Shown here piece after piece: positions 3,734 through 25,657 of a stretch of DNA of 64,000 nucleotides (position 1 is the first letter of the stretch; each line of letters begins with the position of its first letter). A program made the position numbers and the translations under genes. The notes under the pieces were generated by a model. It was not told the origin of the DNA, did not search any database, and was given only the letters and a program-made list of their open reading frames with translations. Origin of the DNA: a virus; the UHGV virus genome UHGV-1430452, one strand, 5' to 3'.

Positions 3734-3952
3734 TTAAACTTTTTCTATTTTGCATTCATCACTGAGTAACCAGTTAAGACTTACTCCAGATAAACAAGGG
3801 TGTGGTGCAAAACCAGGTAATTTGATTAATGAACCCTGCTTACTATCGAAATAATAAATATCGTTACTCTTCTGATTTGTAAATCTGAAGTATTCAGACG
3901 GCCCAATACCGAGCCGCCTTCTGATTAAAAATATAATTAATCTATTTAACAT
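3734..3952 (-). CDS. hypothetical protein
   Basis: 72-aa ORF. Confidence 0.3.
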   Translation of the reverse strand: MLNRLIIFLIRRRLGIGPSEYFRFTNQKSNDIYYFDSKQGSLIKLPGFAPHPCLSGVSLNWLLSDECKIEKV

Positions 3953-11373: not shown

Positions 11374-12312
11374 TCAAATCATGTTGAGAATATCCCCATC
11401 CACATTGAAATCAAGAAGAATAGTTCTCTCATAACCGTTCACGAAGTTACGATTTGCCTCGTTGTAAGTGTTATAGATTCCGAAATCTACGAAATTATCA
11501 CCTACTGGATGTTTCTCGTCATAAATCCATCCAACAATCTGACCTGCCTGTGTACGCGGGATTCCGAGCATATCATATACTTCATTCAGGAACAGATGAC
11601 CTTTCGTTTTCAACATGTCATTTGCATAACGCTGCTGATCTTTAAGGAACATTAGATTGAATTCAGGATCTTTAGTCCATCCTGTACATCCATCATCGAA
11701 GAATTTAGCATAATCGCTGTAACTGTCGAGAGTTGCTACATTTGCTGTTTTCTTAACAGTAGTTTCTGTACCATCTTCATTTACAACAGTCTCTTCGATT
11801 TCTTTTGCTTTGATGTTGTACTTCAGTTCTTTATCAAGCTCTTCACCAAATCTCTCAATAACACGACCACGATATTCCTTGAAGCCTTTGTCAATAGTTG
11901 CATAAGCGGCTGCAAGTGCTAAGTTACGTTTACGAAGAATATGATGACCACTAAGAATAGCAGCGATAGAAACTGTTCCAAGGATTACTGCTGGAGCATA
12001 AAGTTTTGCTACCTTTACGGCTGTTTGAGTATACATGATAGTTAAATCTTTCTTACCATCTTCTTCTGTGTACTCTTTACCTTCTGGAACCATATCTGGA
12101 TTTTCCATAAATTCATGAATTTTCTCGATTTTTTCTTTTGGCTCAGCGAGCACCTCATCGAGTTTAGTAGTTGCTTTACATGCCATTACAGCAGAGCCAA
12201 CTACACCAACAATACCTGCGCCAACCAAGATTTCAGGGCTATGCTTTTTAAATTTAAAACCTACACGATGGAGGCTTCTAGTTACTGTGTTCATAATTTC
12301 TAATTTTGCCAT
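11374..12312 (-). CDS. Membrane protein, paralog family member 1 (two hydrophobic helices near N-terminus)
   Basis: 312 aa; shares SPEIL-hydrophobic-VKAT N-terminus and C-terminal G..GW region with 14387..15214 and 16675..17451. Confidence 0.55.
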   Translation of the reverse strand: MAKLEIMNTVTRSLHRVGFKFKKHSPEILVGAGIVGVVGSAVMACKATTKLDEVLAEPKEKIEKIHEFMENPDMVPEGKEYTEEDGKKDLTIMYTQTAVKVAKLYAPAVILGTVSIAAILSGHHILRKRNLALAAAYATIDKGFKEYRGRVIERFGEELDKELKYNIKAKEIEETVVNEDGTETTVKKTANVATLDSYSDYAKFFDDGCTGWTKDPEFNLMFLKDQQRYANDMLKTKGHLFLNEVYDMLGIPRTQAGQIVGWIYDEKHPVGDNFVDFGIYNTYNEANRNFVNGYERTILLDFNVDGDILNMI

Positions 12313-14386: not shown

Positions 14387-15214
14387 TTAATAGTAGCTAT
14401 CGAAACCATATTCCGGAGGCATCAGATGATCAATAACAATACACGGTTCATTATCTTCCGTAATTTGAGCACTATATCTCACATCGATTTTGCCTTTATC
14501 GATTCTCCAACCGATGCTATTACCAACTTCGGTATGCTTAAGACCAATTTCGTCATAGAAATCATTCAGAGAAATATACATCTCGTTACCGTTGATCATT
14601 CTCTCATTAAGAGTAAGAACAGCATTTTTAATCTTGTCGATATCCGATCTGAAATATCTGTCGGAATGACTGTCATAACACAACGTGTTACCTTTACCTG
14701 TCATGATAATCTGAGTGTCTGCAACCGGATGTTCTTCAACTTGCTTCTTAGCGACTTTATCTCTGATGTTATTTTCCTTCTTCTCTCCGATAGTCTCTAC
14801 CACTTTCTCTCTGTAGTCAGACAGTGCTGTTGTAGATAACTGATATGCTGTTGCCAATGCTGCGTTACGTCTTACATGTACGGAATTAGCACCGATAAGA
14901 CAAGCGACTGACGCAATGCCAGTGATAGCTGCTGGAATATAAGGTTTCCAAGCTGCTTTTACTGTTTCGACAGGTGTGAGATTTAAAGCGTTTCTTTCGT
15001 CTTCTTCTGTGAAAATACCGCCTTCATGAGCTTCTTTCTCTTTAAACTTCTTCTCTTCCTCGATTAACTCCATAGCTTTTGGTGTTGCTTTTACTGCAAG
15101 CACAACAGTAGATATCATACCTGCGATACCAATGCCAGTAAGAATTTCCGGACTGCGTTTTTTCATTACATATTTTGCAGTGTTTAAAAATTTTGTTACA
15201 TTTGGTTTGTTCAT
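14387..15214 (-). CDS. Membrane protein, paralog family member 2
   Basis: 275 aa; paralog of 11374..12312 and 16675..17451. Confidence 0.55.
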   Translation of the reverse strand: MNKPNVTKFLNTAKYVMKKRSPEILTGIGIAGMISTVVLAVKATPKAMELIEEEKKFKEKEAHEGGIFTEEDERNALNLTPVETVKAAWKPYIPAAITGIASVACLIGANSVHVRRNAALATAYQLSTTALSDYREKVVETIGEKKENNIRDKVAKKQVEEHPVADTQIIMTGKGNTLCYDSHSDRYFRSDIDKIKNAVLTLNERMINGNEMYISLNDFYDEIGLKHTEVGNSIGWRIDKGKIDVRYSAQITEDNEPCIVIDHLMPPEYGFDSYY

Positions 15215-15303
15215 TTTTTATCTCCTTTCATGAACAGTTAAATTGTTTTTACCAAAAATCCCACTCGGGAAAATTTTGATCTTGAAAAAATAGAAATCGA
15301 AAA

Positions 15304-15375
15304 GAAACAGTGTAGGACTCGAACCCACAACCTACAGATATAAGTCTGTTGCTCTACCAATTGAGCTAACTGTTT
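15304..15375 (-). tRNA. Probable tRNA; anticodon region reads CUUAUA (possibly UAU, Ile/AUA) but the loop looks one nt short in my manual fold
   Basis: Acceptor stem AAACAGT/ACTGTTT, D-arm GCTC/GAGC, T-arm GTGGG-TTCGAGT-CCTAC all pair; anticodon stem ACAGA/TCTGT. Confidence 0.55.
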
Positions 15376-15709
15376 CTTCTCATAATAGCGCTTGTAAATT
15401 TCGCGAATATAGATCTTCAGAAACAAAAAAGAAGAACCCCGAAGGATTCTCCTAGACTTTCTTCTGAAGCTCAGAAACTGCTTTCTTCAACTCTTCAAAC
15501 TCCTTTTCTTTTTTCTGATCTGATAATGCACCTGCTATAGCCATAATACCTGTTACTACAACACCTGCATATTTTCCGACAGACTTCAGAAGCGGATTAT
15601 TGATAATACCTTTGAATTTCATTTTTCTCGTCTCCTTTCTTCATTCCATTAAAGGAAATGTTTTTGTCGCGATACCGGTTTCGCTATATCAAAATATCAT
15701 CGTTTATCG

Positions 15710-16478: not shown

Positions 16479-16694
16479 TTAGCGAGTGTAATGGATATGC
16501 TCATTGTTTAATTCGTCGAGATGTTTAATAAAATCTAAATATCTTTTATTTCGTCTATTCTCCACAAAGTTTATAACTAACCAAGCAATCCCTACGATAG
16601 GCAAGCCAACGAATACTAATAGAAATAGTAAGCATGTAATCATAGAAACAAGCGTATTCATAAATCTTCTCCTTTCAATACTCTTCGTAATCAA
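16479..16694 (-). CDS. small membrane protein
   Basis: 71 aa; hydrophobic CLLFLLVFVGLPIVGIAWLV. Confidence 0.4.
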   Translation of the reverse strand: MITKSIERRRFMNTLVSMITCLLFLLVFVGLPIVGIAWLVINFVENRRNKRYLDFIKHLDELNNEHIHYTR

Positions 16695-17451
16695 TGAACG
16701 GCTCTGTGAAATCTACAATATAACATTCAATACCGTCGTCCATTTCTACTTTTGTATGGTGGAAATATAGCCAACCATCCCAGTACATTTCATACATCTG
16801 AGCTGCGGACCAACCCATAAATTCACCGTAATCCTGTCGATCAATCTCTAGTAAATCGTAATAATCGTTTAAAGATGCACCACCGGATTGAGATAGCATT
16901 TTATTAATCTCATACTCTGCTCTCAATTGAGTTTCTTTCGTCACACGGTAATAACGTTTGGAATATTCATCGTAGAATAGTGTTTTGCCATCCTCGTATT
17001 CGTCGTCATATTCTTCTTTGTCTTCTTCCTCGTAATGGTCTTTTGCTACAGCAGCACGAATGAGTTTGTCTCCGTCTTCACCATATAACTTTTTAACTTT
17101 GTTTTTGTACTCTTTGTGAGTTTGGTCTAGTAAGGCATAAGCAGATGCGATGGCTGCTTGGGAATGTTTGTTTAATAGATTCGCGCCAAATATGCAAGCT
17201 AGGGTTCCTGTTCCAATCAATAAGGAAGGAATATATGTTGGTCCTGCTACTCGAATAGTCTCCCATTTTGTTAATTCATCTCCTTTCTCTTCTTCAGCTA
17301 GTTCAATAAGTTCCATTGCTTTCGGAGTAGCTTTAACCGCCATTACAGCTGTACCTACCACTCCGGCAGCTCCTAATACTGTTAATATAGTAGAGCTGTT
17401 TTTCTTTACGAATCTTTTCGAAACTGTTAGTAAGTCATTCATTTCCAGCAC
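16675..17451 (-). CDS. Membrane protein, paralog family member 3
   Basis: 258 aa; paralog of 11374..12312 and 14387..15214. Confidence 0.55.
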   Translation of the reverse strand: MLEMNDLLTVSKRFVKKNSSTILTVLGAAGVVGTAVMAVKATPKAMELIELAEEEKGDELTKWETIRVAGPTYIPSLLIGTGTLACIFGANLLNKHSQAAIASAYALLDQTHKEYKNKVKKLYGEDGDKLIRAAVAKDHYEEEDKEEYDDEYEDGKTLFYDEYSKRYYRVTKETQLRAEYEINKMLSQSGGASLNDYYDLLEIDRQDYGEFMGWSAAQMYEMYWDGWLYFHHTKVEMDDGIECYIVDFTEPFIDYEEY

Positions 17452-17563
17452 GCTCCTTGGCGATAAATTTGGTAAAAATAAAAAGAGAAAGAAAAGAGTC
17501 AGCTTGTTGTGTAAACCAAGTCTAACTCAATTCTTTTTGTCATTATCCGAAATAACAATATCC

Positions 17564-17590
17564 CATAACAGGTGATGTAATTTTCGCGAA
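17564..17590 (-). promoter_or_regulatory. Instance of conserved promoter-like motif
   Basis: CATAACAGGTGATGTAATTTTCGCGAA. Confidence 0.5.
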
Positions 17591-17824: not shown

Positions 17825-17993
17825 TCCTTTAATTGGTTTTTGATAAAAATAAAAAGAGAATACAATGACTTCAGGGTCGGCCCAACGAAAACCGTTGCCC
17901 GGTGGGTAGCATGTTTTATTACGTTATTACGTGCCGCTACGCCTTCGTGTCTCACCACTGGATTTCCACCAGTATCTATCCATTGCTTTCTCT

Positions 17994-18020
17994 CATAATA
18001 GGTGATGTAATTTTCGCGAA
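17994..18020 (-). promoter_or_regulatory. Instance of conserved promoter-like motif (minus-strand TTCGCGAAAATTACATCACCTATTATG)
   Basis: -10-like TATTAT and palindromic TTCGCGAA core; one of about 20 copies. Confidence 0.5.
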
Positions 18021-18346: not shown

Positions 18347-18373
18347 CATAATAGGTGATGTAATTTTCGCGAA
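18347..18373 (-). promoter_or_regulatory. Instance of conserved promoter-like motif
   Basis: Identical core CATAATAGGTGATGTAATTTTCGCGAA on the plus strand; 36 nt upstream of the ATG of 18048..18311. Confidence 0.5.
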
Positions 18374-18536: not shown

Positions 18537-18629
18537 TTTAGATTCCTCCTGTTAAGCAATTTATTATCTTTCCATAATAGGACTTGTAATTTTCGCGAAT
18601 TAAAAGAAAAGACACCGTGTTTCAGGTGC

Positions 18630-18857: not shown

Positions 18858-18943
18858 AATTACCTCCTCCTTCTAGGTTGTTTCCTATAATAGGGGAAGT
18901 TTAAGTCGCGAAAACAAAAGAAAGAGCAGTGGGTGACACCGCT

Positions 18944-19335: not shown

Positions 19336-19695
19336 TTAAATCGCGCGTCTATCGAAGCAAGTTTCCCATCGTTCTCGCTTAACTGGCTTCATTTTCATAG
19401 TCCACATCATTTGTCGGACCGTTACGGTGGGATATAAACCGTTCTCAGGTTCTCCCGATCTATCCTCGAAGAACTCCAGGAATCTTTCATGTAAATATAA
19501 AGTGTCTGTCAGCCACGGATCAATCTCGCCCCACCAGGTATTTTTCGTCGCTGGATCATATCGCTGCTGAATAACAGCTAGTCCTTTTCGTCCCATTTTG
19601 AATAAAGTACATTTACTGTAAACTGGATGATCACATTCATAAGTTTCTCCGTACATCGATACATAAACTTTTGGCTTTTCGTAGTGATAACGCAT
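19336..19695 (-). CDS. hypothetical protein
   Basis: 119 aa. Confidence 0.4.
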   Translation of the reverse strand: MRYHYEKPKVYVSMYGETYECDHPVYSKCTLFKMGRKGLAVIQQRYDPATKNTWWGEIDPWLTDTLYLHERFLEFFEDRSGEPENGLYPTVTVRQMMWTMKMKPVKRERWETCFDRRAI

Positions 19696-19791
19696 ATTAC
19701 TATTATCCTTTCTTTAACTTTAGTTATATAACTTTTGTTTAAACTCTCGCGTTAGGAAATATAAAAGAAGAAAAAAAAAGAAAAGACTATG

Positions 19792-19868
19792 GGAATAGCG
19801 CGGGATTCGAACCCACGACGTTGAGTTTCCTCTTATTCTTCCATTAGAACTAACCGTCTTAACTATTC
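19792..19868 (-). ncRNA. tRNA-like element: acceptor stem and T-arm (GGTTCGAATCC) recognisable, anticodon arm not
   Basis: GAATAGT...GTGGG-TTCGAAT-CCCGC-GCTATTC-C; I could not fold a canonical D or anticodon arm by eye. Confidence 0.35.
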
Positions 19869-19988
19869 CAGAGACTTCTTCCGATATATTGCTATACGGG
19901 AATTGTTCTCTTCTTTTCTATAATAGGAAATGTTTATTTAGCGAAAGAAAATAGCCCAGGCGTTTAACCCGAGCTAATTCTCTTAAAC

Positions 19989-20357
19989 TTATTCGTTACC
20001 ATTGAGTTTCTCAATAGCTTCAACCTTCCTGCTGTCAAACATCGTAGAATTTACAATACTCATCACAGCTTTGTAATATGTTTTCGGCTGATCCTTCTTG
20101 AGCAACTCTATCGCCTGAACTTTACGACTATCAAACATGCTGCTGTTCATTATCGAAGCTACCGCACTGTCATAATCTGCTGTGCTAAATATATCCGCTA
20201 ATAAATCAACTTCATATGTGTCCTGTTTTCGTTTCTTTTCACGCAATACAACTGCCACAATTGGAATCGCAATACCAATCCCATTTGCTACATATTCTGT
20301 GATTTTCCATAAACTCTCTTTTGTTTTCTCGCTAGTTAAAACTTCTTTGATTTTCAT
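19989..20357 (-). CDS. hypothetical protein with internal duplication (STMFDSRKVEAIEKL twice) and N-terminal hydrophobic helix
   Basis: 122 aa. Confidence 0.4.
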   Translation of the reverse strand: MKIKEVLTSEKTKESLWKITEYVANGIGIAIPIVAVVLREKKRKQDTYEVDLLADIFSTADYDSAVASIMNSSMFDSRKVQAIELLKKDQPKTYYKAVMSIVNSTMFDSRKVEAIEKLNGNE

Positions 20358-20457
20358 ATCAATAACCTCCTATAAGTTTATTCTCATAACAGGCGTTGTA
20401 ATAATAGCGAAAAAGAAGAGCCTAAGTCATTTCGACTCAAGCCCTTCCATTTTGAAA

Positions 20458-20871
20458 TTACTTTTTTGGGAGTAACTTCTGAATGAATCCTCGACCCATT
20501 ATTGTTGTGATGGTTCCAGTCTCTTCGAATTTGATAGACTTGATTGTGCCCCAGATAGTAACCGCTGTCGGTATAACAATACCCGCTCCTGTTAAGCAAT
20601 TCTTAACAACTCGATCTTTTCGTTCATCTTTAAGCTGCTCTGCTCTTAATTCAGCATCAACATTTTGCTGATCCTTTTTAAGTTCTTGTTCAGCCTTAAT
20701 TTTCTCAAGTTCGATTGCTCGATCACATAACTTTGTCAGGCCGTCTACCGTATTTTTGTACTTATCTGTACCTACTTCAAGTTTTCCTAACTCTTCGAAT
20801 TCGTCCTGAATCTCATCTTTTAATAATGTTTCAATACTCATTTTGAACTCCTCCTTATATTCGTATTTCAT
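20458..20871 (-). CDS. hypothetical protein, coiled-coil with C-terminal hydrophobic helix
   Basis: 137 aa. Confidence 0.4.
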   Translation of the reverse strand: MKYEYKEEFKMSIETLLKDEIQDEFEELGKLEVGTDKYKNTVDGLTKLCDRAIELEKIKAEQELKKDQQNVDAELRAEQLKDERKDRVVKNCLTGAGIVIPTAVTIWGTIKSIKFEETGTITTIMGRGFIQKLLPKK

Positions 20872-23397: not shown

Positions 23398-23994
23398 ATG
23401 ACAATAGGACAAAAAATAAAAGAATTACGCAATCAACTTAATATGTCGGTGGATGATCTTGCTGTGAAACTGGGTAAGAACCGTGCGACTATCTACCGCT
23501 ATGAACGAGGAGATATCGAGAACCTCCCTCTCGATGTACTAGAACCATTAGCAAATGCTCTTGAGACCACACCTGGTTATTTAATGGGATGGGAAGAAAC
23601 TACGAAAAAGAAAGAGCCTTCAATTATCGATGAAGTTACCATGGGTGACGTTTTTAAAGCGTTACGTCTAGGAAGTAATTTATCGATAGAGGAATTTTCG
23701 CATGAGATTGGATTATCTGCCCAAGACATAAGCAATTATGAAGCAGGAAAGACTCCTATACCTGTAAATATAATTAATCTTGTTGCTGATTTCTTTGGCA
23801 TATCAATAGCGGAAATAGTTAAGGCACACAAAAACAGCGAAAATAGAACGCCTTCTGGTTTCGAAATGAAAAAGGAACGATTTGAACGTTTTAAAGTTTG
23901 GAATAAAGAGTTTGGACGAATACATTTTACTGATGAAGAAATCAATAAAATAATGGAATATACAAGGTTCTTACTTAGCCAAAGAAGACAGTAA
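23398..23994 (+). CDS. XRE-family (cI-like) repressor with two HTH domains
   Basis: 198 aa; IKELRNQLNMSVDDLAVKLGKNRATIYRYERG and a second HTH EEFSHEIGLSAQDISNYEAGK; RBS AAAGGAG. Confidence 0.8.
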   Translation: MTIGQKIKELRNQLNMSVDDLAVKLGKNRATIYRYERGDIENLPLDVLEPLANALETTPGYLMGWEETTKKKEPSIIDEVTMGDVFKALRLGSNLSIEEFSHEIGLSAQDISNYEAGKTPIPVNIINLVADFFGISIAEIVKAHKNSENRTPSGFEMKKERFERFKVWNKEFGRIHFTDEEINKIMEYTRFLLSQRRQ

Positions 23995-24070: not shown

Positions 24071-25657
24071 GTGGAACCAATGACAACGTTTGATATGAAC
24101 AACGCTGTAGACAATGCGTTCGGTATGGACGTATATGCTATCTATCTTCGGAAAAGTCGAGCCGATGTAGAAGCAGAAAAACTTGGAGAAGGAGAAACAC
24201 TAGCAAGGCATAGAAAGATACTAACAGAACTTGCTGCTAGAAAAGGATTGTATATCGGTAAGATTTACGAGGAAATTGTATCTGGTGAAACAATCGAAGC
24301 TAGACCTGAAATACAAAAACTGATAGAAGATTGTTATAAAGGGAAATATAGAGGAATCCTAATAGTAGAAGTTACTCGTCTATCTCGTGGTAATCAAGGA
24401 GACGCTCAAAAAATACTCGACTGTCTCAAATATTCGAATAGAAACAATGGTGTATTAGTTATCACTCCTACTAAGACTTATGACGTTGCACACAGCCAAG
24501 AAGACGAAGAATATATGGAGTTTGAATTGTTTATGTCTCGTCGAGAATATAAGATGATTCAAAAGCGTATGGATCGTGGCCGTAAACAAGCAGTCGTAGA
24601 AGGAAACTTCATGGGTAGTTACCGTCCCTATGGATATGACATCTTAAAAACCAAGACCGGACGAACACTTATACCGAATGAAGATGAAGCTCCTATCGTG
24701 AAAATGATTTACGAATGGACAGTTAACGATAATTTATCTCCTTTCAAGATAGCTGAGCGTTTAACTAATATGGGTGTTCCTACTTATTATGGTGAGAAGG
24801 ATTGGTCTAAAGAAACAGTTAAAACCATTTTGACGAATCAGACATACATGGGTAAAGTTCGTTGGAATGATCGAATGACTGTTAAGACTATGGTCGACGG
24901 AGAACTTAAAGCTACACGACCTCGTTCAAATCATTCCGATCACTTCATGCTATATGATGGAAAACATATGAAACACGCACTCGTCGACGAAGAAACATTC
25001 AAAGCAGCCTCCTCTCGCTTTCATAACGATAGGACAAGATCAAATCTAAAACTTGTTAATCCTCTTGCAGGACTTCTATTTTGTAAGAAATGTGGTAAAT
25101 CTATGGGTTATCAATCATATAGACATAAGAAAAACGGACCAATGGATCGATACAATCATAGACAGTCTGCTAATGGATGCAAGGTTAAGTCAGCAGTTGC
25201 TGAGGATGTTATAAAAGCTGTTATACATGCTTTGAAACTTTATATAGAAGATTTCGAATTTAAGTTAGACAACACTCCAGATGTTGACGAAAATTCAATC
25301 AATACGCAGCTCGAAGCTTTACAAAAAGAAATACGAAAATCCGAACGAAAACTTGCTAAGCTATTCGATTCTTGGGAAGATGAGAAGATAACAGATAATG
25401 AATTTGTTCAAAGGAAAGCCGTCCATAATCAGAAGATAGAAAATATAAAGAGGCAAATGGAAGAACTCGAATATTCGATACCAGAAAGAGAAGAATATGA
25501 GGATAAAATAATATTGCTGTCTGAAGCACTTGTCGCTATCACAGACGAATCGCTTGACGCAGATATTAAGAACGAGTATCTTAAAAGAATCATTGATAGA
25601 ATAGAGTTTAGTAGAGAGAATAACTCAGAGTTTATACTAGATATAGACTTATGCTAA
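24071..25657 (+). CDS. Large serine recombinase (integrase)
   Basis: 528 aa; resolvase-like N-terminus with catalytic-Ser context YLRKSRADVE; C-terminal zinc-ribbon CKKCGKS and coiled-coil; true start may be the ATG at 24080. Confidence 0.88.
   Translation: MEPMTTFDMNNAVDNAFGMDVYAIYLRKSRADVEAEKLGEGETLARHRKILTELAARKGLYIGKIYEEIVSGETIEARPEIQKLIEDCYKGKYRGILIVEVTRLSRGNQGDAQKILDCLKYSNRNNGVLVITPTKTYDVAHSQEDEEYMEFELFMSRREYKMIQKRMDRGRKQAVVEGNFMGSYRPYGYDILKTKTGRTLIPNEDEAPIVKMIYEWTVNDNLSPFKIAERLTNMGVPTYYGEKDWSKETVKTILTNQTYMGKVRWNDRMTVKTMVDGELKATRPRSNHSDHFMLYDGKHMKHALVDEETFKAASSRFHNDRTRSNLKLVNPLAGLLFCKKCGKSMGYQSYRHKKNGPMDRYNHRQSANGCKVKSAVAEDVIKAVIHALKLYIEDFEFKLDNTPDVDENSINTQLEALQKEIRKSERKLAKLFDSWEDEKITDNEFVQRKAVHNQKIENIKRQMEELEYSIPEREEYEDKIILLSEALVAITDESLDADIKNEYLKRIIDRIEFSRENNSEFILDIDLC

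Follow-up and report, generated by a model that had tools for sequence, protein, structure and literature searches.

Positions 19792..19869 of UHGV virus genome UHGV-1430452, which its gene content marks as a temperate siphovirus-type phage or prophage, carry on the minus strand a tRNA-like element of 78 nucleotides (nt), i.e., GGAAUAGUUAAGACGGUUAGUUCUAAUGGAAGAAUAAGAGGAAACUCAACGUCGUGGGUUCGAAUCCCGCGCUAUUCC, read 19869->19792. The whole stretch of DNA analyzed, 64,000 nt long, is referred to here as the window. The body of the element was delimited from homologues, a single-sequence fold, covariation and a covariance model of a related gene family. As set out below, it has a defined anatomy, is under purifying selection, descends from the phage's own tRNA-like genes and has lost the capacity to decode. 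A preliminary description had placed a tRNA-like element with a T loop and a 7-base-pair (bp) acceptor stem at 19792-19868; the sequence is present there and both features are real, but the element lies on the minus strand and its acceptor stem gains an eighth pair, U8-G71.

The neighboring features on the same strand follow one another in close order. A gene for a small membrane protein of 122 amino acids (19989..20357, minus), here termed P122, which travels with the RNA, ends in an intrinsic-terminator-like hairpin and T-run (19952..19976, minus; a 10-pair stem with five G-C pairs and the tail TTTTCTTTCG) that marks the 5' border of the element's own unit. Next come a promoter-like motif, TTCGC-N15-CCTATTATA (19919..19945, minus), with a predicted start at about 19912-19914, a conserved leader hairpin (19879..19902, minus), the 78-nt body and, beyond it, a U-rich tract (19763..19786, minus) that is the likely transcript end.

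The T-loop box, GGTTCGAATCC at 19803-19813 (minus), was not significant by itself: two matches with no more than one mismatch were found where 0.57 were expected, and 10 shuffles in 100 reached that number. The whole element was significant, with a minimum free energy of -24.2 kcal/mol (z = -2.95, single sequence) and a score of 30.2 bits (E value about 1e-5) with a covariance model, R2, of the phage tRNA-like family of Oengus-like phages from which the element itself had been left out. Two standard detectors were silent: ARAGORN did not call the element in the window, its sole tRNA-like call being another gene at 15303-15376 (minus), and Rfam at its gathering threshold reported only that same gene. 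Neither the Rfam library nor ARAGORN thus recognizes the element, yet its resemblance to the phage's own tRNA-like genes is clear. When Rfam was run in permissive mode the best match was tRNA-Sec, with 19.2 bits and E = 0.3 against a threshold of 47, a match confined to the acceptor stem and T arm that left the D, anticodon and variable regions unaligned. Hits to Vault and plastid entries were chance agreements with the T-loop box.

Pattern scans, together with look-ups via a neighboring protein gene, yielded 13 distinct homologues in gut phage and metagenome contigs, scoring 93-109 bits with a model termed R1. A human-gut contig, OHES01000485.1, carries a stretch identical to the window. Only five contigs in IMG/VR carry the element, and an exact 25-mer scan of that database gave no matches because the closest copy there differs at G71. 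The element was absent from BLAST results for GenBank phages, near and distant, and a scan of a genome collection with it found one contig, probably a phage. A pattern for the leader hairpin retrieved 21 stretches, among which only L099 and L105 were new true copies; L095-L098, L100-L104 and L106-L112 proved to be unrelated sequence, with no tRNA-like body after the pattern match. One 70.9-kb contig, L089 (JAFZDU010000001.1), which contains the element, a second tRNA-like gene and a gene of the DUF6353 family, is filed under a Bacteroidales metagenome-assembled genome from buffalo rectum; its gene content resembles that of Faecalibacterium-type phages, and the Bacteroidales assignment is probably a binning artefact.

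A single fold accommodated the 13 sequences, with 25 pairs, 99.1% of alignment cells paired and compensatory changes at seven pairs. None of 500 shuffles reached the observed pairing values, and when registers were slid the paired fraction fell to 33-55%. With the first seven copies, simply aligned by MAFFT, RNAalifold arrived at this fold too. The closing helix is an acceptor stem of 8 bp (97% of cells paired), formed by GGAAUAGU (19862..19869, minus) and GCUAUUCC (19792..19799, minus), i.e., GGAAUAG with CUAUUCC plus the pair U8-G71, which is U-G in ten copies and U-A in three. CA follows the stem on the 3' side and no CCA is encoded. The T arm (GUGGG-UUCGAAU-CCCGC, 19800..19816, minus) is the fifth helix, with compensatory changes at four of its five pairs.

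The center of the element, which the preliminary description had been unable to fold, forms three covariation-supported helices. The outermost of these, P2, pairs GACG (19855..19858, minus), which lies within an insertion of about 9 nt relative to the phage tRNA-like family, with CGUC (19817..19820, minus) in the variable-loop position, i.e., G12ACG15 with C50GUC53; its pair 14-51 is C-G in ten copies, U-A in two and U-G in one. Because the insertion is paired with the variable loop in this way, the D arm and a short stub hang from a second junction. The D-arm homologue, the third helix, was identified both by MAFFT and in the R2 alignment (stem GUUCU/AGAAU, loop AAUGGA; 19835..19850, minus); across the copies it reads GUUCU-AAYGGM-AGAAU, two of its pairs switch between U-A and C-G, and its loop retains the GG that makes the tRNA elbow. 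In the place of the anticodon arm the R2 alignment puts the stub GAG-GAAA-CUC (19823..19832, minus), whose stem is invariant, with a fourth pair that is G-C in five copies and G-U in L118, and with loops of GAAA, AAAA, GUUA or UAAA. A cloverleaf with a D stem AGAC/GU(U)CU was discarded, U21 and U22 covarying with A34 and A33 and not with A12. Three single-stranded purine-rich stretches, GGUUAG, AAYGGA and UAAGAG, are invariant while the stems drift, and these unpaired bases are kept even across copies whose T stem has changed at four of five pairs.

Several other uses of short motifs in the element and its leader were considered and found little support. The D-like hairpin, inside P2, happens to contain AUG GAA GAA UAA (Met-Glu-Glu-stop; 19835-19846, minus), but the AUG is ACG in three homologues, so that there is no conserved reading frame in the hairpin. 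CsrA-type GGA hairpins were not supported, the second GGA not being kept across copies; the same was true of an anti-Shine-Dalgarno sponge, for which the leader offers AAGGAG and the body AAGAGG, AAGGAG not being kept, and of a T-box-like display of a codon (UGG or CGG) in the loop, where the loop base varies between U and C.

The features flanking the body suggest that it is transcribed as a unit of its own, and it is from these sequence motifs that we infer promoter function, start site and termination. The promoter-like motif occurs as six minus-strand copies between 15381 and 19945 and none on the plus strand, against 0.22 expected, and it is found upstream of every homologue. In the form TTCGCG-N14-CCTATTATG it stands before early and RNA genes at 15381-15407, 17994-18020, 18347-18373, 18573-18599, 18886-18912 and 19919-19945 (all minus), and a further copy, at 17563-17590, was found by eye. 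The motif may also serve as a recombination linker for gene cassettes. The hairpin and T-run upstream of the motif could likewise be read in the flanks of several homologues, the terminator scan itself having covered the window. The leader is about 43 nt long and folds into a hairpin of nine predicted pairs (YUCC-C-GUAY ... RUAU-C-GGAR, with an internal C/C mismatch) in which two pairs switch between C-G and U-A; a third pair, closing the loop, shows compensatory changes, yet is broken or gapped in four of ten sequences. Pairing between leader and body (AGAAC/GUUCU) was considered and rejected, the leader in L099 and L105 not following the changes in the D-like stem. The U-tract comes directly after the acceptor stem in 9 of the 13 homologues and after a 7-nt spacer in the clade of the window. 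The U-run behind the stem would suit an intrinsic terminator, but the stem closes a branched fold and the terminator scan made no call. In most copies (L088, L089, L090, L093, L099, L118 and L126) the next promoter motif follows the U-tract.

tRNA-like genes of the form G-AAACAGU-UA-GCUC-AAUUGGUA-GAGC...GGUUCGARUCC...ACUGUUU-C are numerous in related phages, and MAFFT aligned the segment UAG-UUCU-AAUGGA-AGAA-UAA of the element with the D arm of this family, UAG-CUC-AAUUGGUA-GAG-CAA. The family model R2 scored nine copies of the element at 29.5-46.5 bits (E values of 1e-5 to 2e-10) and, at high posterior probability, equated the central hairpin with the D arm, the stub with the anticodon arm and CGUC with the variable loop. 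A tRNA-Thr(CGU)-like gene in contig L041 has almost the same acceptor stem and T arm as the element. On the strength of these scores and of this likeness, the element is a derivative of the phage's own tRNA or tRNA-like lineage. The R2 alignment starts at an inner segment, (G)AGACGGU, which is able to pair imperfectly with the 3' strand of the acceptor stem, and the 5' end of the element therefore resembles a short duplication.

Element and family (GAAACAG... or GAAUAG...CUGUUUC, as in the window at 15303-15376 and in L041 at 3792-3866) have in common the acceptor sequence with U8-A9, the D-arm sequence UAG-YUC..UGG.AGAR, the T arm GUAGGUUCGAAUCCUAC, an extra -1:73 pair, the promoter-like motif and the trailing U-tract. 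Three changes set the element's body apart: the anticodon arm has been cut to a stub, about 9 nt have been added after the 5' strand of the acceptor, and four of these clamp the variable loop by forming P2. In addition, family genes start about 6 nt after the promoter motif and have no leader, whereas the element has its 43-nt leader with a hairpin, and the element, unlike the family, usually has no DUF6353 gene next downstream.

The anticodon region of the family as a whole is far from canonical. Matches to the family model in L001-L082 and L126 amounted to 54 hits, of which 32 were distinct (31 sister genes and the element of the window). A canonical 23-nt segment between D and T arms was found in only four of the 32, so that decoding is not what has been conserved in this lineage. 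The modal length was 20 nt, made up of a stem of 4 bp and a loop of 6 nt, or of 5 bp and 4 nt, respectively. In some members GAAA or GAUA caps a stem of 8 bp, or 15-30 nt are inserted; the single value of 18 nt is that of the element. Among 30 sampled elements (23 sister genes and seven copies of the element), 12 lie 21-90 nt upstream of a DUF6353 gene; these are 11 sister genes and the copy in L089, which the second tRNA-like gene separates from its DUF6353 gene. In the examples that we read no promoter motif intervenes between sister gene and DUF6353 gene, and there the tRNA shape is therefore part of the 5' end of an mRNA. The family member in the window (15303-15376, minus) scores 62 bits with the Rfam tRNA model, has a 6-nt "anticodon" loop, CUUAUA, and is reported by ARAGORN as "tRNA-???". 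A promoter-like motif (15381-15407) precedes its start by about 6 nt, and the DUF6353 gene at 14387-15214 follows 89 nt downstream, with no promoter motif between the two genes.

Comparison with known RNA classes placed the element in none of them. As in canonical tRNA (RF00005), it has a closing acceptor stem, here of eight pairs instead of seven, and a T arm with a 5-bp stem and a 7-nt loop conforming to UUCRANY. The AAYGGA hairpin aligns to the D arm, but it has a 5-bp stem and stands 11 nt from the acceptor instead of 2. A canonical anticodon arm (a 5-bp stem and a 7-nt loop with U33) is absent, as the preliminary description had noted; in its place is the stub of 3-4 bp with a loop of 4-6 nt, and without a 7-nt anticodon loop the element cannot read a codon. 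The best score with any member of the tRNA clan, the 19.2 bits already mentioned, falls short of the curated RF00005 threshold of 29 bits. The helix of 8 + 5 bp formed by acceptor and T arm is that of tRNA-Sec (RF01852), but the 6-bp D stem, the UCA anticodon, the long variable arm and a score of at least 47 bits are all lacking. The element is not a tmRNA either: pair 3:70 is A-U in all 13 sequences, where tmRNA has G3-U70, the reading frame is not conserved, and ARAGORN made no tmRNA call. A permissive Rfam search of 19600-20050, with matches to E = 10, returned no Y-RNA family; no search for a Ro60 gene was made.

The genomic setting of the element is variable, and three or more different settings can be told apart. 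In eight contexts it lies between the lysis genes and a convergent integrase gene, at 80 to about 1700 nt from the latter, and in four contexts, including the window, where the distance is about 4.2 kb, it lies in the early region; with the distance to the integrase so variable, there is no fixed attachment site. A P122-family gene adjoins it, on either side and within about 1 kb, in seven of nine contexts that were found through the RNA alone, and all four IMG/VR contigs found by P122 protein patterns carry the element, although four of nine P122-family genes sampled from a protein database have no element within 1.5-2.5 kb. Members of the P122 family are about 105-122 amino acids long, with a hydrophobic segment at the N-terminus and, after it, two SxM[LF]xS[YR]K helix-loop-helix repeats. 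P122 had no match in Pfam, PHROG, PADLOC or NCBIfam. AlphaFold modeled residues 60-120 of the family with a predicted local distance difference test (pLDDT) score above 90, and the model of P122, whose C-terminal four helices are at pLDDT > 90, had no match in the PDB at E < 3. Two family members in the database, of 211 and 154 amino acids, contain more than two repeats, which means that the repeat number is variable or that these assemblies contain errors.

Genes homologous to those at 20458-20871 and 19336-19695 of the window are 64-106 nt apart in about 25 relatives, whereas the same interval in the window (19696-20457) measures 762 nt and holds P122 and the element. That the pair fills a gap which is closed in these relatives suggests that it arrived as an inserted cassette. 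Comparison with L004-L082 marks this interval, which genes of the phrog_15866 and phrog_17256 types flank, as a place where cassettes insert preferentially; in other relatives it measures 309-1429 nt and contains different small genes. The nearest named relative of the window is Faecalibacterium phage FP_oengus, with 55% identity for the protein encoded at 19336-19695.

Elsewhere in the window are a large serine integrase (24071-25657, plus) and a repressor (23398-23994, plus), and a holin and a tail fibre are encoded upstream, on the minus strand. The minus-strand early region encodes a fused primase-polymerase and, at 11374-12312, 14387-15214 and 16675-17451, three DUF6353 (PF19880) paralogues; aligned N-terminal sequences of this family show a hydrophobic segment near the N-terminus. 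An untranslated stretch of about 150 nt (17845-17992, minus) extends from a promoter-like motif to the ribosome-binding site of the next gene. Its fold z-score is only -1.58 and it has no Rfam match; in L061 a tRNA-like gene is preceded by a sequence resembling this stretch.

We consider it somewhat more probable than not, at about 0.55, that a temperate Faecalibacterium-type phage has in this element a functional gene for a small RNA, which is drawn from the phage's own tRNA-like family and acts in trans as a non-decoding tRNA mimic. Of the four options that the preliminary description had offered, a regulatory mimic is the only one to survive. The RNA would be transcribed alone from the phage promoter-like motif, as a precursor of roughly 125-150 nt carrying the leader hairpin and the U-tract. 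RNase P, RNase Z and the CCA-adding enzyme recognize the acceptor/T-arm helix and the elbow of their substrates, and the coaxial acceptor/T-arm helix (8 + 5 bp) is retained in the element. By analogy with other tRNA-shaped substrates, host RNase P could remove the leader, and RNase Z or exonucleases, together with the CCA-adding enzyme, might finish the 3' end. The mature RNA, of roughly 78 nt, would then occupy or divert a factor that reads tRNA by the acceptor/T-arm helix and elbow and not by the anticodon; candidates are a tRNA-directed defense or toxin, or a processing or charging enzyme. Specificity might come from the invariant purine-rich single strands, and the RNA would spread as a cassette, usually with the small membrane-protein gene. 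Action in trans, the weakest step in this chain, is inferred; we prefer it because the unit is self-contained, because in contig L087 there is nothing downstream to process, and because the single-stranded purines are invariant while the stems drift.

A number of observations sit less comfortably with this proposal. The homologues are close relatives, with a mean column identity of 94% among the first seven, so that the compensatory changes represent few independent events, and the 13-sequence alignment (A5) was fitted to the model. P2 is supported by a single covarying pair. The end of the acceptor stem is variable: its first pair is G-C in ten copies, G-U in two and G/A in one, its second pair is a G/A mismatch in two sequences, and the base 3' of the stem is C or U, with CCA not encoded. 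Such variation is unexpected in a mimic that works through its acceptor end. In one clade, L105 (3372-3451, minus) and L117 (2111-2190, plus), the T loop is UUAGAAU (C56->A) with the D-like loop unchanged, so that the usual G19-C56 elbow pair would be lost and the elbow weakened. The promoter-like motif is not sigma-70-like, its spacer being below the standard for -35 and -10 boxes, and a consensus promoter scan made no call. Finally, if the leader is merely cut off, there is no evident reason for its hairpin to be conserved.

The alternative that fares best, although we think it rather unlikely, is that the element acts in cis, as a "punctuation" site processed by RNase P and RNase Z, as a 5' stabilizer, or as a tRNA-shaped terminator or insulator between units. 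The U-tract behind the acceptor stem fits such a role, as does the position of the sister genes, about 6 nt after the promoter motif, with 12 of 30 sampled elements 21-90 nt upstream of DUF6353. However, the element is preceded by a promoter motif of its own and a conserved leader of 43 nt, most copies have a further promoter motif behind them, and the next gene in L087 is a convergent integrase, which leaves nothing downstream to process. Nor would a signal for cleavage or termination need invariant single-stranded bases.

The linkage to P122 raises the further possibility, which we regard as unlikely, of a two-gene module, for example for superinfection exclusion or abortive infection or as a toxin-antidote pair, in which the RNA regulates or serves the membrane protein. 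The frequencies of co-occurrence given above speak for it, as does the presence of the pair together in two genome regions and, in the window, as one insertion. Yet L087 and L089 have the element without P122, just as four of the nine sampled P122 genes lack an element nearby; gene order varies, other genes can intervene, and each partner has its own promoter motif and terminator. Moreover, the protein has no recognizable RNA-binding fold, and much of the linkage could be explained by a shared "moron" region.

It is very improbable that the RNA is a chargeable adaptor, i.e., that a synthetase blind to the anticodon (for example HisRS via G-1:C73, or SerRS, AlaRS or LeuRS) charges it with an amino acid that is donated or sequestered outside decoding, including in a tmRNA-like role. 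Numbered like its tRNA relatives, the stem is indeed G-1:C73 plus 7 bp in 10 of the 13 copies, the junction of acceptor, P2 and T arm resembles the tRNA-like domain of tmRNA, and AUG GAA GAA UAA lies inside P2. But position 73 is A or U in three copies and the first pair is broken in others, the "reading frame" is the D-like hairpin, and the want of G3-U70, of an encoded CCA and of a tmRNA call tells against charging. The extra -1:73 pair is also found in sister genes whatever their loop (A:U in L041), and its origin is more likely to lie in the transcription start and the terminator stem.

Least probable of all is a functionless relic, either a decaying tRNA pseudogene or an attachment site: ARAGORN and Rfam are silent, the terminal acceptor pairs are mismatched in some copies and the element is 80 nt from the serine integrase gene in L087, but four helices show compensatory changes, long stretches are invariant, and a full-length unit with its own promoter motif and conserved leader is kept across phage backbones at 80 nt to over 4 kb from the integrase. 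The preliminary suggestion of a degenerate tRNA was thus right as to descent and wrong as to decay, given the seven compensatory pairs, the invariant single-stranded bases, the promoter-like motif and the conserved leader. A relic attachment site or tRNA 3' fragment does not agree with an element of full length at variable distances from the integrase, and an intron-containing tRNA does not agree with a length of 78 nt, which is too short, or with the lack of a 7-nt anticodon loop beside any insertion.

Stand-alone anticodon-less tRNA mimics in DNA phages are not, to our knowledge, a described class. The element was not described in the literature searched; a catalogue of 10,006 candidate phage RNAs, which mentions tRNA-like motifs (PMC10690425), was not compared for overlap. 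If made and matured as proposed, the RNA would be a compact natural example of which parts of tRNA suffice for the host machinery that it engages. In the conflict between phages and Faecalibacterium-type bacteria, an abundant, health-associated gut group whose phages have barely been studied, it would also be a candidate for a role at the RNA level. Most tRNA-like genes of the lineage have non-canonical "anticodon" arms and lie at the 5' ends of DUF6353 mRNAs, which suggests that the tRNA shape serves a purpose other than translation in these phages, and that some such genes may be overlooked and others wrongly labeled when the tRNAs of gut phages are counted automatically. More speculatively, and as an unlikely extension, the element might represent an undescribed class of anticodon-less tRNA mimics in gut temperate phages, a branch of a large tRNA-like family whose anticodon region is free to vary, which alone or with P122 would neutralize or trigger a tRNA-directed immune or toxin system as a decoy, the cassette moving by recombination at the repeated motif.

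Among the closest known systems is tmRNA, in whose tRNA-like domain an acceptor stem and a T arm, with no anticodon, are joined to a third helix. In both RNAs the third helix runs from just after the 5' strand of the acceptor to just before the T stem. Unlike tmRNA, the element has no G3-U70, tag frame or pseudoknots, is 78 nt long as against about 350, and has a true D-arm hairpin. The mascRNA/MEN-beta and plant-virus tRNA-like structures are also non-decoding and are recognized by RNase P, RNase Z, the CCA-adding enzyme or synthetases. The ends of the bacterial Y RNA YrlA pair into a stem that binds Ro60, and a loop closes its "acceptor", whereas in the element the RNA ends form the acceptor stem itself. 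Otherwise YrlA, whose tRNA-like module is the subject of PMC4201824 and bioRxiv 10.1101/312249, appears to be, like the element, a non-decoding mimic of the acceptor, T and D part of tRNA. The mascRNA/MEN-beta and viral structures are tRNA-shaped as the element is (PMC5723415, on viral mimicry), but they are eukaryotic or belong to RNA viruses and form the 3' ends of long RNAs, whereas the element is a stand-alone gene in a DNA phage. In Bacillus cereus, tRNA-Other is a pseudo-tRNA recruited into a regulatory RNA (PMC3399842); like the element it is tRNA-derived, lies on mobile DNA, does not function in translation and is part of a longer transcript with 5' extensions, but it comes from another organism, differs in sequence, keeps its anticodon arm, is regulated by iron and has mRNA targets. 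Phage tRNAs with altered anticodon loops have been proposed to escape host anticodon nucleases (PMC10264068); these share with the element's family a phage-borne location and anticodon loops off the host pattern, but they still decode with 7-nt loops, and escape while decoding cannot apply to an element whose anticodon arm is gone. The element would work like known non-decoding tRNA mimics while being a member of none of these groups; it belongs to the phage tRNA-like lineage defined here.

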